Part shown: one piece after another, positions 46,292-47,073 of the stretch | Numbering within the stretch: position 1 is the stretch's first letter | Layout: each line of letters begins with the position of its first letter | Source of the DNA: Eubacteriales bacterium | GTDB lineage: Bacteria > Bacillota > Clostridia > Oscillospirales > CAG-272 | Reading direction: 5' to 3' | Assembly: GCA_045637265.1 (NCBI GenBank) | Contig: JAZTZC010000437.1 | Span: 1-48,604 of the forward strand | DNA length: 48,604 nt | Translations under genes and position numbers: made by a program | Notes under the pieces: model-generated | What the model was told of the DNA's origin: nothing | The model's database searches: none | Seen by the model: only the letters and a program-made list of their open reading frames with translations

Positions 46292-46320
46292 TTGCCAATG
46301 ACCGCATGGTATGATACAAT
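46292..46320 (+). promoter_or_regulatory. Sigma-A promoter of the DIP1984-family gene
   Basis: TTGCCA-17 bp-TACAAT with extended TG. Confidence 0.7.
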
Positions 46321-46355
46321 AATAATAGAAATATAGTAAAAAGGAGTTATCAGCC

Positions 46356-46808
46356 ATGAAACTTGCCGAAGCATTACAGGAGCGCGCCGACCTCGCACGC
46401 CGCATTGATTCCATCAAAAGCCGCCTTTCTCACAATGCCATCGTTCAGGAGGGAGAGCAGCCCGCGGAAGATCCCGCCGCTCTGCTTGCTGAATTTGATG
46501 CATGCACCAACCGTATGGAAGAACTGCTCACCCGCATCAATCTGACCAACTGCAATACCGTCGTTCTCGGTCAGAGTCTGACTGCCCTGCTTGCACGCCG
46601 TGATGCGCTGAAGATCAAGCTCGACGGCTATCGGGCGCTTGTCAACGACGCAAGTTCCACCGCACGCCGCGCGACCCGTTCCGAGATCAAGATTCTGTCC
46701 ACCGTCAATGTTGCCGAGCTGCAAAAGACGGTCGATCTGACCGCAAAAGAGCTTCGTCAGCTGGACAATGCCATTCAGGCGGCAAACTGGACGACCGAGC
46801 TTTTGTAA
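46356..46808 (+). CDS. DIP1984-family coiled-coil protein of unknown function
   Basis: MKLAEALQERADL, N..VQEGE.PAEDP, RINLTN, LARRDAL, R.TRSEIK, IQAANWTTELL; AAGGAG RBS. Confidence 0.88.
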   Translation: MKLAEALQERADLARRIDSIKSRLSHNAIVQEGEQPAEDPAALLAEFDACTNRMEELLTRINLTNCNTVVLGQSLTALLARRDALKIKLDGYRALVNDASSTARRATRSEIKILSTVNVAELQKTVDLTAKELRQLDNAIQAANWTTELL

Positions 46809-46812
46809 ACAA

Positions 46813-47073
46813 TTTGTTGGTAGTCTGTTGTTTTCATCGCGGGCGCAGAACCTCATGTGACACGGAAGAATCGGCTTGTCCGATGCTTCTCTGTCCGCGG
46901 CAGGAGGTAAGCTGCCGCATTCAGATGGGTGTCATGGGCGGACACAGCGGGTTCGACTCCCGCATGTATCGTAACGCCCCGATCGCGCATAAACGCATCG
47001 TTACCGTGTATTCTGTACTACCGCTGCGCCGGAACAGCAGACGAGGGTTGGGTTTGGGGAAATCATTTTTCAA
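46813..47073 (+). ncRNA. Candidate structured non-coding RNA with tRNA-like T-arm, directly 3' of the DIP1984-family gene
   Basis: At least seven hand-found helices nested in a closing stem (46823-46834 with 47031-47042); GCGGG-TTCGACT-CCCGC at 46947-46963; boundaries approximate. Confidence 0.6.

Follow-up and report, generated by a model that had tools for sequence, protein, structure and literature searches.

The contig JAZTZC010000437.1 of an Eubacteriales bacterium (assembly GCA_045637265.1; 48,604 nucleotides, here called the window) carries on its plus strand a gene of the DIP1984/DUF6847 family (46356–46808, 150 amino acids), and directly behind this gene lies a structured RNA of roughly 200–250 nt that we call the DIP1984-3′ RNA. 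It almost certainly represents a new and widespread structured RNA family with members of about 170–275 nt, and the searches and alignments described here demonstrate that the family exists, how it folds, which strand it uses, that it is linked exclusively to the gene and how widely it is spread across phyla. They also establish that gene and RNA behave as an autonomous module, often carried on plasmids and patchy in its distribution. The RNA is probably an unrecognised partner of the widespread DIP1984 protein. A sequence-only reading of the window had drawn attention to the 287-nt gap between the stop codon of the gene (TAA, 46806–08) and the next ATG (47096), and had placed in it an undescribed RNA with a tRNA-like arm that would be made together with the gene and might bind its product; the gap is as described, and all the helix strings quoted for it stand at the coordinates given.

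We found the element by BLAST in 7/10 genomes of the same genus, at 71–88% identity, and in 0/50 genomes outside it. At six loci of the genus (L003–L008), it lies directly 3′ of a DIP1984 gene and at L010 the copy is cut by a contig end; the match at L009 was discarded as a chance match. The seven genus copies already show compensatory changes. In its own genome (3.3 Mb, 81% complete), the element is single copy, and the dispersed repeat that the sequence-only reading had named as a way for its proposal to fail was thus not seen. The copy at L010 (positions 1–211, genome G009, at the contig edge) is a second, 5′-truncated RNA copy that is 93% identical to the window over 97 nt and is followed by lipoprotein paralogues; it could be a second module or the result of an assembly split.

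A protein-alignment scan with one genome per species yielded 569 relatives, and the analysis went on with the 80 best loci. These include Oscillospiraceae, Ruminococcus flavefaciens, Lachnospiraceae, an Erysipelotrichaceae metagenome-assembled genome, Pyramidobacter, Paludibacteraceae and Bacteroidales. An nhmmer profile of the genus copies found the RNA at 65/80 of these loci and missed it, for example, at L016; a covariance model, R1, then recovered all of them. R1 has 212 positions and 33 bp and was built from a seed alignment (A6) of 43 of the 80 loci with a hand-checked nested structure; the window and its genus were left out of the seed. In 95 sources (480 kb, both strands), R1 gave 94 matches, one per DIP1984 locus, on the gene's strand and immediately 3′ of it, and the match stood directly behind the gene in 80/80 of the best 80 loci. 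The window copy was matched over the full model (positions 1–212; 46805–47073, plus strand, core 46819–47059) with 90 bits and an E-value of 2.3e-28, R1 E-values being rough.

The linkage also holds in genome samples drawn by taxonomy, in which the gene itself is sporadic. Seven of 121 genomes of the taxonomic family carry it, and a strong RNA match occurs in precisely these seven; the genus nhmmer profile finds the 3′ half of the RNA behind 5/6 of the foreign copies. One further match, of 21 bits, falls in a gene-less genome that is 63% complete. Among 151 genomes drawn across the phylum, the gene occurs in 8 and the RNA stands beside it in 8/8; the other matches are a 51-nt partial one in a gene-less genome and a 61-nt second partial one in a gene-bearing genome. 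The three orphan R1 matches of these two samples are all weak or short (20–23 bits). A draw of 401 genomes of the phylum contained 27 with a protein match, 21 of them above the cut-off, and the RNA was found behind 18/20 full-length genes other than that of the window. Both exceptions (L131 and L132, in genomes G258 and G168 of one genus) are second tandem DIP1984 copies without recognisable RNA. In these two genomes, the two DIP1984 genes are ~2 kb apart and the first copy has the RNA; behind the second (~1300–1500, minus strand), we noticed a degenerate remnant of ~170 nt (GGUAAC ... UUCUACC-AAGUAC-UGAC) that R1 does not score, followed by a coiled-coil-like gene.

The module reaches well beyond these samples. 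A tblastn search with the window protein returned 370 plasmid records, 341 from Acinetobacter and 17 from Enterococcus; the remainder come from Mycobacterium, Streptomyces, Picosynechococcus, Paracoccus, Psychrobacter and others. We examined seven remote plasmid loci. The annotated ones all have an unannotated gap of 300–730 nt past the gene; the Paracoccus record has no annotated features in this stretch. When R1 was run with its filters off, the top match lay directly 3′ of the DIP1984 gene and on the same strand in 7/7 of these loci, with scores of 94.2 bits in M. branderi, 58 in Picosynechococcus, 53 in Streptomyces, 44.6 in Paracoccus, 32.3 in Psychrobacter, 21.7 in A. baumannii pAB0057 and 18.8 in E. 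faecium. Together with the related loci, the pair of gene and RNA therefore spans Bacillota (Clostridia and Bacilli), Bacteroidota, Synergistota, Pseudomonadota, Actinomycetota and Cyanobacteriota, that is, at least six phyla, and the suggestion that an undescribed conserved RNA accompanies DIP1984 genes across phyla is borne out at 80/80 related and 7/7 remote loci. We also considered a phage origin and rejected it, the gene being rare in phage records (5/50,697).

For the analysis of covariation, we used an alignment of 89 sequences that includes the remote phyla (A8) and 41 proposed pairs. The two positions of these pairs are paired in 85.7% of cases, compared with 64.1% for shuffled partners (0/500 shuffles reach the observed value) and 37–48% when the pairing is slid, in an alignment that was fitted to the model and so favours its structure. 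Two-sided, compensatory changes occur in 39/41 pairs, and the covariation score is 0.545 vs. 0.203; the outcome of this check for covariation downstream of homologues, of the kind proposed from the window alone, speaks for a conserved structure. A second alignment, A7, likewise fitted to the model, gives the same pairing outcome. The strand test counts 235 G-U against 112 A-C cells and favours the gene's strand, with a mild bias that comes from fitting the alignment to this strand. Any given reading frame is open in at most 27/89 members.

Read from 5′ to 3′, the family consists of a variable closing stem P0 (65% paired), the motif GGUAG, helix P1, an RGCG junction and helix P2; then the hairpin of a first pseudoknot (PK1), hairpin Pa, an optional T-arm hairpin, a small hairpin rich in G-U pairs and the strand YAYnACC; and finally the 3′ strand of P2, a GA, the 3′ strand of P1, a tail of the form GAGGG-N-GGG-NNN-GGGG and the 3′ strand of P0. 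The family's core helices, pseudoknot hairpin, Pa with its GGGC/GCCC pairing, YAYnACC strand and G-rich tail can all be located in the window, whose copy departs from the family by the insertion of a hairpin, P4, and by an altered P1/P2 junction.

All of the window's elements lie on the plus strand, and the family values given with them refer to the 89 sequences. At the 5′ edge stands GGUAG (46819–46823), a motif found in similar form in 62/89 members. The 5′ strand of P1 (46823–46834) pairs with 47031–47042, and its first 8 bp correspond to the family P1, which is 89.6% paired with compensatory changes in 6/6 pairs. Three U-G wobbles in the window's P1 would be A-C if read on the minus strand, so that these wobbles work on the plus strand only, as the sequence-only reading had stated. 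P2 (46842–46848 with 47024–47030) is 99.1% paired in the family, where AU is replaced by GC and UA by CG in 9–31 sequences per pair. The two 3′ strands, 47024–47030 of P2 and 47031–47042 of P1, follow each other directly (47024–47042). Hairpin P5 (GCGGCAG/CUGCCGC, 46897–46918) is the family's pseudoknot hairpin; its family helix is 82.8% paired with compensatory changes in 4/4 pairs, and within the genus GCGGCAG/CUGCCGC is replaced by GCGGUGA/UCACCGC, again a compensatory change. P1, P2, P5 and the T-arm hairpin (P6) had all been drawn correctly from the window, and each matches a covarying helix of the family.

Other parts of the initial drawing fared differently. P4 (46864–46890) is a genus-specific insertion: its stem stays paired within the genus through two-sided changes, but it is absent from the family model. 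The proposed helix P3 (TGACAC with GTGTCA) does not stand, because GUGUC at 46929–33 pairs instead with GACAC at 46941–45 and forms hairpin Pa (46929–46945), which is conserved across phyla (86% paired, compensatory changes in 5/5 pairs). P7 (46971–76 with 46999–47004) does pair in the window, but its register shifts even among close relatives and is inconsistent across the family, where 14–26/43 sequences are paired, and it was left out of the model; the small hairpin that it encloses (GCG 46985–87 with CGC 46994–96, within 46971–47004) is a family helix, 80.6% paired with many G-U pairs. Downstream of it, the single-stranded motif UACUACC (47016–47022) represents the family consensus YAYnACC, a strand that the reduced RNAs of Acinetobacter and Paludibacteraceae still retain. 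The G-rich tail (47043–47059) is real, as is the common G-rich 3′ motif that the sequence-only reading suspected behind other DIP1984 genes: the tail is found in 77/89 members, among them those of Mycobacterium, Streptomyces, Picosynechococcus and Paracoccus. It consists of conserved G-runs with variable linkers, a pattern for which a G-quadruplex was considered, and we found no pairing partner for it.

Two observations speak against the emphasis on a tRNA-like character. The T-arm-like hairpin P6 (46947–46963) has a 5-bp stem and the loop UUCGACU and gives a partial match to the T-arm of tmRNA. Such a hairpin is present in 60/89 members, 52 of which carry a GGUUCGANUCC-like sequence; it is absent in 29/89, and no acceptor stem accompanies it, so that it is a peripheral module and not the core. 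It is dispensable, since one locus of the same genus (L006, ~1620–1680) is a natural swap in which two unrelated hairpins stand in its place and the remaining RNA is ~90% identical.

The family structure contains two pseudoknots, of which one covaries. PK2 joins the loop of Pa, GGGC, to GCCC about 40–100 nt downstream (46936–39 with 46976–79 in the window); its positions pair in 96.5% of cases, GC is replaced by AU in 13 and 5 sequences and CG by UA in 4, and mutual information recovered it independently. It is well supported. PK1 is of the H-type, in which CUC in the 5′ flank of the hairpin pairs with GAG of the hairpin's own loop. In the window, ACCUC (46850–46854) pairs with GAGGU (46904–46908) in the loop of P5; in the family, PK1 is 82% paired and mostly invariant, with CCUC/GAGG variants seen. 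The R1 matches of Moraxellaceae and Paludibacteraceae end before GGUAG and before the G-rich tail, and the A. baumannii sequence is without both. This pattern suggests that GGUAG and the tail are lost together and form one accessory module. We rejected a pairing of GGUAG with the UACC of YAYnACC, as its G-to-U and G-to-A changes are uncompensated and UACC persists where GGUAG is gone. A kink-turn at the P1/P2 junction is likewise not claimed, since the consensus, as we read it, does not fit the tandem G-A geometry of that motif.

The element matches none of the known RNA classes, in agreement with the first impression from the window. With Rfam 15 at gathering scores, the window holds only a tRNA-Met elsewhere and nothing over the element, and ARAGORN finds no tRNA or tmRNA there. 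A permissive Rfam scan (46700–47150, E up to 10) yields only a 17-nt piece of the tmRNA T-arm, at 13.8 bits vs. a gathering score of 47. No Rfam family covers the element in 20 of the 80 related loci or in the 7 remote loci. A tRNA or tmRNA is further rejected on structure: an acceptor stem is missing, and ~70 nt separate the T-arm from the P1 3′ strand. A bacterial Y RNA (YrlA/YrlB) is rejected because there is no match at E up to 10 in Rfam, which we take to hold bacterial Y RNA models, and because the adjacent gene is DUF6847 and not TROVE. The known riboswitch and ribozyme classes are rejected, as no curated Rfam 15 model matches, and so is the RNA of a type III toxin–antitoxin system, as 46200–47200 contains no tandem repeats and the gene product has neither a PADLOC match nor a nuclease-like fold. 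We found no description of an RNA tied to the gene's names in the literature within reach, to which most subscription journals and paper supplements do not belong. In the main text of a paper on small RNAs of A. baumannii AB5075 (PMC5320573), the words "plasmid", "p2AB5075" and "TonB" are all absent. When we call the RNA not described, we mean that it is absent from Rfam 15 and was not found in the literature searched.

The protein encoded in front of the RNA belongs to the DIP1984/DUF6847 family at full length and above the cut-offs of both curated models: Pfam PF20935 assigns it at 8.8e-50 (168.8 bits vs. a cut-off of 27) and NCBIfam NF038048 at 4.2e-52 (176.2 bits vs. 70). The solved but uncharacterised protein of C. 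diphtheriae (PDB 3kdq) matches at 4.9e-27. The confident AlphaFold2 model (predicted local distance difference test score 95.9) has four helices, 3–26, 40–67, 75–100 and 119–146. In fold searches with this model, 3kdq was the sole real match (Foldseek 1.2e-10; VIA Z 16.6, root-mean-square deviation 1.4 over 150 residues); everything else was a generic helical hairpin (Foldseek E ≥ 0.37; VIA Z ≤ 8.3), and such matches are uninformative because the protein is helical, and no nuclease-like or other toxin-like fold was matched. Nor does any PADLOC model match the protein. The N-terminal arm of seryl-tRNA synthetase binds a tRNA arm, and the protein gives a sub-threshold Pfam match to this coiled-coil arm (E 0.0016, 19.1 bits vs. 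a cut-off of 28.2), which we took as coiled-coil noise. The invariant polar residues of DIP1984 proteins include R10, R23, R105 and R134, with Q31, N65, Q141, N144 and W145.

Thiol-activated, cholesterol-dependent cytolysins are proteins of about 500 aa and beta-rich. The DIP1984 protein, with 150 aa, an all-helical model and DUF6847 as its only Pfam family, differs from them in size and predicted helix content. The label "septicolysin" fits poorly to a 150-aa all-helical protein that is genetically tied to a structured RNA; papers that mention the gene treat it as a putative cytolysin or virulence factor purely from annotation.

Several observations bear on how the RNA is made. It mostly starts 10–28 nt past the DIP1984 stop codon, too close for an intergenic promoter of its own to fit in between. 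In the 110 nt past the RNA, terminator-like hairpins with T-runs are present in 35/88 loci compared with 17/264 random windows; the opposite strand also scores, in 28/88, as expected at gene ends. Parts of the stretch occur in fourteen runs recorded as RNA libraries. One contig of 696 nt from a bovine-gut metatranscriptome, which belongs to a ~92%-identical relative, covers 46349–47039; it begins shortly ahead of the start codon, reaches the P1 3′ strand and leaves the flanks uncovered; in two further RNA-library runs, the gene is covered and coverage continues into the relative's version of the RNA. Such contigs may stem from DNA, so that they are no proof of one continuous transcript. A candidate sigma-70-like promoter 5′ of the gene (46292–46320, plus strand; TTGCCA, 17 nt, TACAAT, TG extension; 10/12 in a consensus scan) was identified by pattern match, and upstream of the loci only ribosome-binding sites and −10 boxes recur. 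Some loci lie inside ordinary operons behind an upstream gene. Gene and RNA are thus likely to be co-transcribed; the single transcript that the sequence-only reading had assumed has gained indirect support, from the spacing, the terminators and the 696-nt contig.

We propose the following explanation. The RNA comes from the strand of the gene, where it most likely forms the 3′ portion of the DIP1984 transcript, and folds into a closed multi-helix body with P1 and P2 around a conserved RGCG/GA internal loop. The four-helix DIP1984 protein may then bind the RNA, perhaps in cis during its synthesis, and the resulting ribonucleoprotein (RNP) particle would be the functional unit; gene and RNA are inherited and transferred together as a self-contained two-part module. 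For direct binding of the RNA by the protein, we put the chances a little above even. The reading as a whole, a new RNA class that is co-transcribed with the DIP1984 gene and forms a ribonucleoprotein with its product, we favour with modest confidence, with binding as its inferred part.

A number of points weigh against this proposal. The DIP1984 protein is near neutral (~20 K/R vs. 21 D/E by hand count), and RNA binders are typically basic. No residue change is common to the tail-less lineages Moraxellaceae and Paludibacteraceae, and there is thus no signal of co-evolution. The tandem copies at L131 and L132 mean that the protein can be encoded without an RNA copy of its own. The shuffling check of folding energy, proposed by the sequence-only reading, gave −99.4 kcal/mol for the window copy on the plus strand, which is a weak result (z = −1.77, with 7/200 shuffles folding as well), and the minus strand does better (z = −3.29). 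Folding energy is thus weak and shows no preference for the plus strand, and the case therefore rests on the comparative evidence. To these points are added the roughness of the R1 E-values, the fitting of A7 and A8 to the model and the possible DNA origin of the RNA-library contigs.

An alternative is that the RNA is a cis-acting element of the 3′ untranslated region (UTR) that does not bind the DIP1984 protein, either a riboswitch-like sensor or an exonuclease-blocking fold that sets mRNA stability or termination. The placement in the same transcription unit, 10–28 nt past the stop codon, and the terminator-like sites after the RNA would suit such an element, as would the lack of protein co-evolution and the conserved junction nucleotides and pseudoknots, which are typical of ligand pockets. 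Known riboswitches, however, act from 5′ leaders, and no alternative pairing of the RNA with the terminators, 9–99 nt downstream of it, was seen. A mere stabiliser would not need a ~200-nt multi-pseudoknot fold kept across six phyla, and an exclusive link to one protein family suits a partner better than a generic element. We therefore regard an element of this kind as unlikely.

Still less probable, in our judgement, is a separately acting RNA that regulates DIP1984, or is regulated by it, without a stable particle, as part of a toxin–antitoxin- or defence-like mobile module. Mobility is what speaks for it: the distribution is sporadic in all three genome samples, the gene is present in hundreds of plasmid records, most of them from Acinetobacter, and the two-part unit moves without conserved neighbours (DUF6847 itself and an antisense ORF over its gene aside, each neighbour family is seen at no more than 5/80 loci). 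Type III antitoxins consist of tandem RNA repeats beside an endoribonuclease toxin gene, and no such repeats were seen here; the protein matches neither PADLOC nor a nuclease- or toxin-like fold, the gene is rare in phages, and some loci sit within ordinary operons.

That the RNA is a 5′ leader or regulator of the gene downstream, in the window a lipoprotein-like gene at 47096, is very improbable. A ribosome-binding site and a gene on the same strand do follow within ~10–50 nt in the window and at some loci of Ruminococcus, but no downstream family occurs in more than 4/80 loci, many loci end in a terminator or a convergent gene, and the linkage is always to the upstream gene; as the downstream context varies, this explanation is largely refuted. 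Finally, the element might be a decayed tRNA or tmRNA fragment, the scar of an integration site, a dispersed repeat or an overlooked gene for a small protein, to which the weakly tmRNA-matching T-arm hairpin and an 89-aa open reading frame (ORF) overlapping the region in the window might point. This has next to no probability and is refuted by the single copy in the genome, the negative ARAGORN result, covariation over ~200 nt well beyond an optional T-arm and the lack of a consistently open frame.

The ribonucleoprotein proposal can be set beside several known systems. YrlA is a structured RNA encoded beside the Ro60/Rsr gene; it has a tRNA-like module with a T-arm and is sporadic. The DIP1984-3′ RNA similarly adjoins one specific protein gene and often has a T-arm, but no Ro/TROVE protein is involved, the partner being a 150-aa four-helix protein; it has no Rfam match, its T-arm is dispensable, and its core is formed by two long-range helices and two pseudoknots. 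tmRNA has a T-arm and several pseudoknots, and it has a small protein of its own, SmpB, which is often encoded next to it. The tmRNA T-arm is the only Rfam signal on our element, yet the match is far below the gathering score, and acceptor stem, CCA end and tag frame are all missing. Both Ro/Y RNA and SmpB/tmRNA may serve as analogies for a gene-adjacent pair of protein and RNA. OLE with OapA, the raiA motif, ROOL and GOLLD are long, intricate and patchily distributed noncoding RNAs that came from comparative genomics, some with adjacent partner genes. The DIP1984-3′ RNA matches none of them in Rfam, is shorter (~200 nt) and stands one-to-one with a single small protein family, 3′ of its gene.

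Small RNAs derived from 3′ UTRs are short, Hfq-dependent and act by seed pairing. Like them, the DIP1984-3′ RNA lies at the 3′ end of an mRNA, before the terminator, but it has a body of ~200 nt with covarying helices and pseudoknots that is conserved across phyla. TnpB with its omega RNA, encoded at the 3′ end of the TnpB gene, and ToxI of type III toxin–antitoxin pairs resemble the module in that a protein gene and a cognate RNA that abuts it form one small mobile unit; they differ in that DIP1984 has no nuclease fold, and no tandem repeats, no transposon ends and no PADLOC match were seen here.

Taken furthest, the data could mean that DIP1984 proteins are not cytolysins but the protein half of an ancient, horizontally mobile RNP, a new class beside Ro/Y RNA, SmpB/tmRNA and the OLE complex. 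The RNA half would be ~200 nt long with at least one covarying pseudoknot and often a tRNA-elbow-like T-arm and the G-tract module, and the plasmids of A. baumannii and E. faecium would be among its unnoticed carriers in at least six phyla. We advance this wider view tentatively, with slightly more doubt than belief. Long covarying pseudoknotted RNAs usually prove to be RNP scaffolds, riboswitches or ribozymes. It is rare for a new one to be conserved as broadly as this RNA, which ranges from Clostridia to Actinomycetota, Cyanobacteriota and Proteobacteria. A DUF family whose crystal structure (3kdq) dates from 2009 and to which no function has been assigned gains a testable lead in the dedicated RNA behind its gene, and the label "septicolysin/virulence factor", copied through Acinetobacter plasmid papers, is now questioned. 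R1 and alignment A8 let annotators fill a recurrent unannotated gap of ~300 nt, and cultured, tractable carriers exist in Ruminococcus flavefaciens 007c, Picosynechococcus PCC 7003, Paracoccus versutus and Streptomyces.

The surroundings of the module vary. In 26/80 loci, an antisense ORF overlaps the DUF6847 gene, which we read as an artefact of ORF calling. One or two opposite-strand tRNA genes lie 5′ of the DIP1984 gene in 6/20 of the loci scanned with Rfam (L030, L063, L066, L067, L069 and L084). In Pyramidobacter (L028), a lysine riboswitch (2578–2751, 82.7 bits) follows ~120 nt past the DIP1984-3′ RNA, so that two structured RNAs stand back to back. On A. baumannii pAB0057 (L099), the gene 5′ of DIP1984 is zinc-related and encodes the TonB-dependent receptor ZnuD2; on E. 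faecium pNB2354_1 (L100), a neutral zinc metallopeptidase gene is found in this position, and in Picosynechococcus a MerR-family regulator lies near the locus. These neighbours could reflect a link to metals or a coincidence; zinc-type neighbours are not recurrent in the 80 gut-bacterial loci.

In the window, the lipoprotein-like gene 3′ of the RNA (47096–47857, plus strand) has no Pfam or NCBIfam match and lies outside the conserved module. It is followed by a tandem paralogue (47896–48603, plus strand) that is 58% identical to it and likewise belongs to no Pfam or NCBIfam family, and relatives of the window have one to three such paralogues in varying order. On the other side, an amino-acid ATP-binding cassette (ABC) transporter operon (43609–46027, minus strand) that is divergent from the DIP1984 gene encodes an ATPase, a permease and a family-3 solute-binding protein and looks ordinary.

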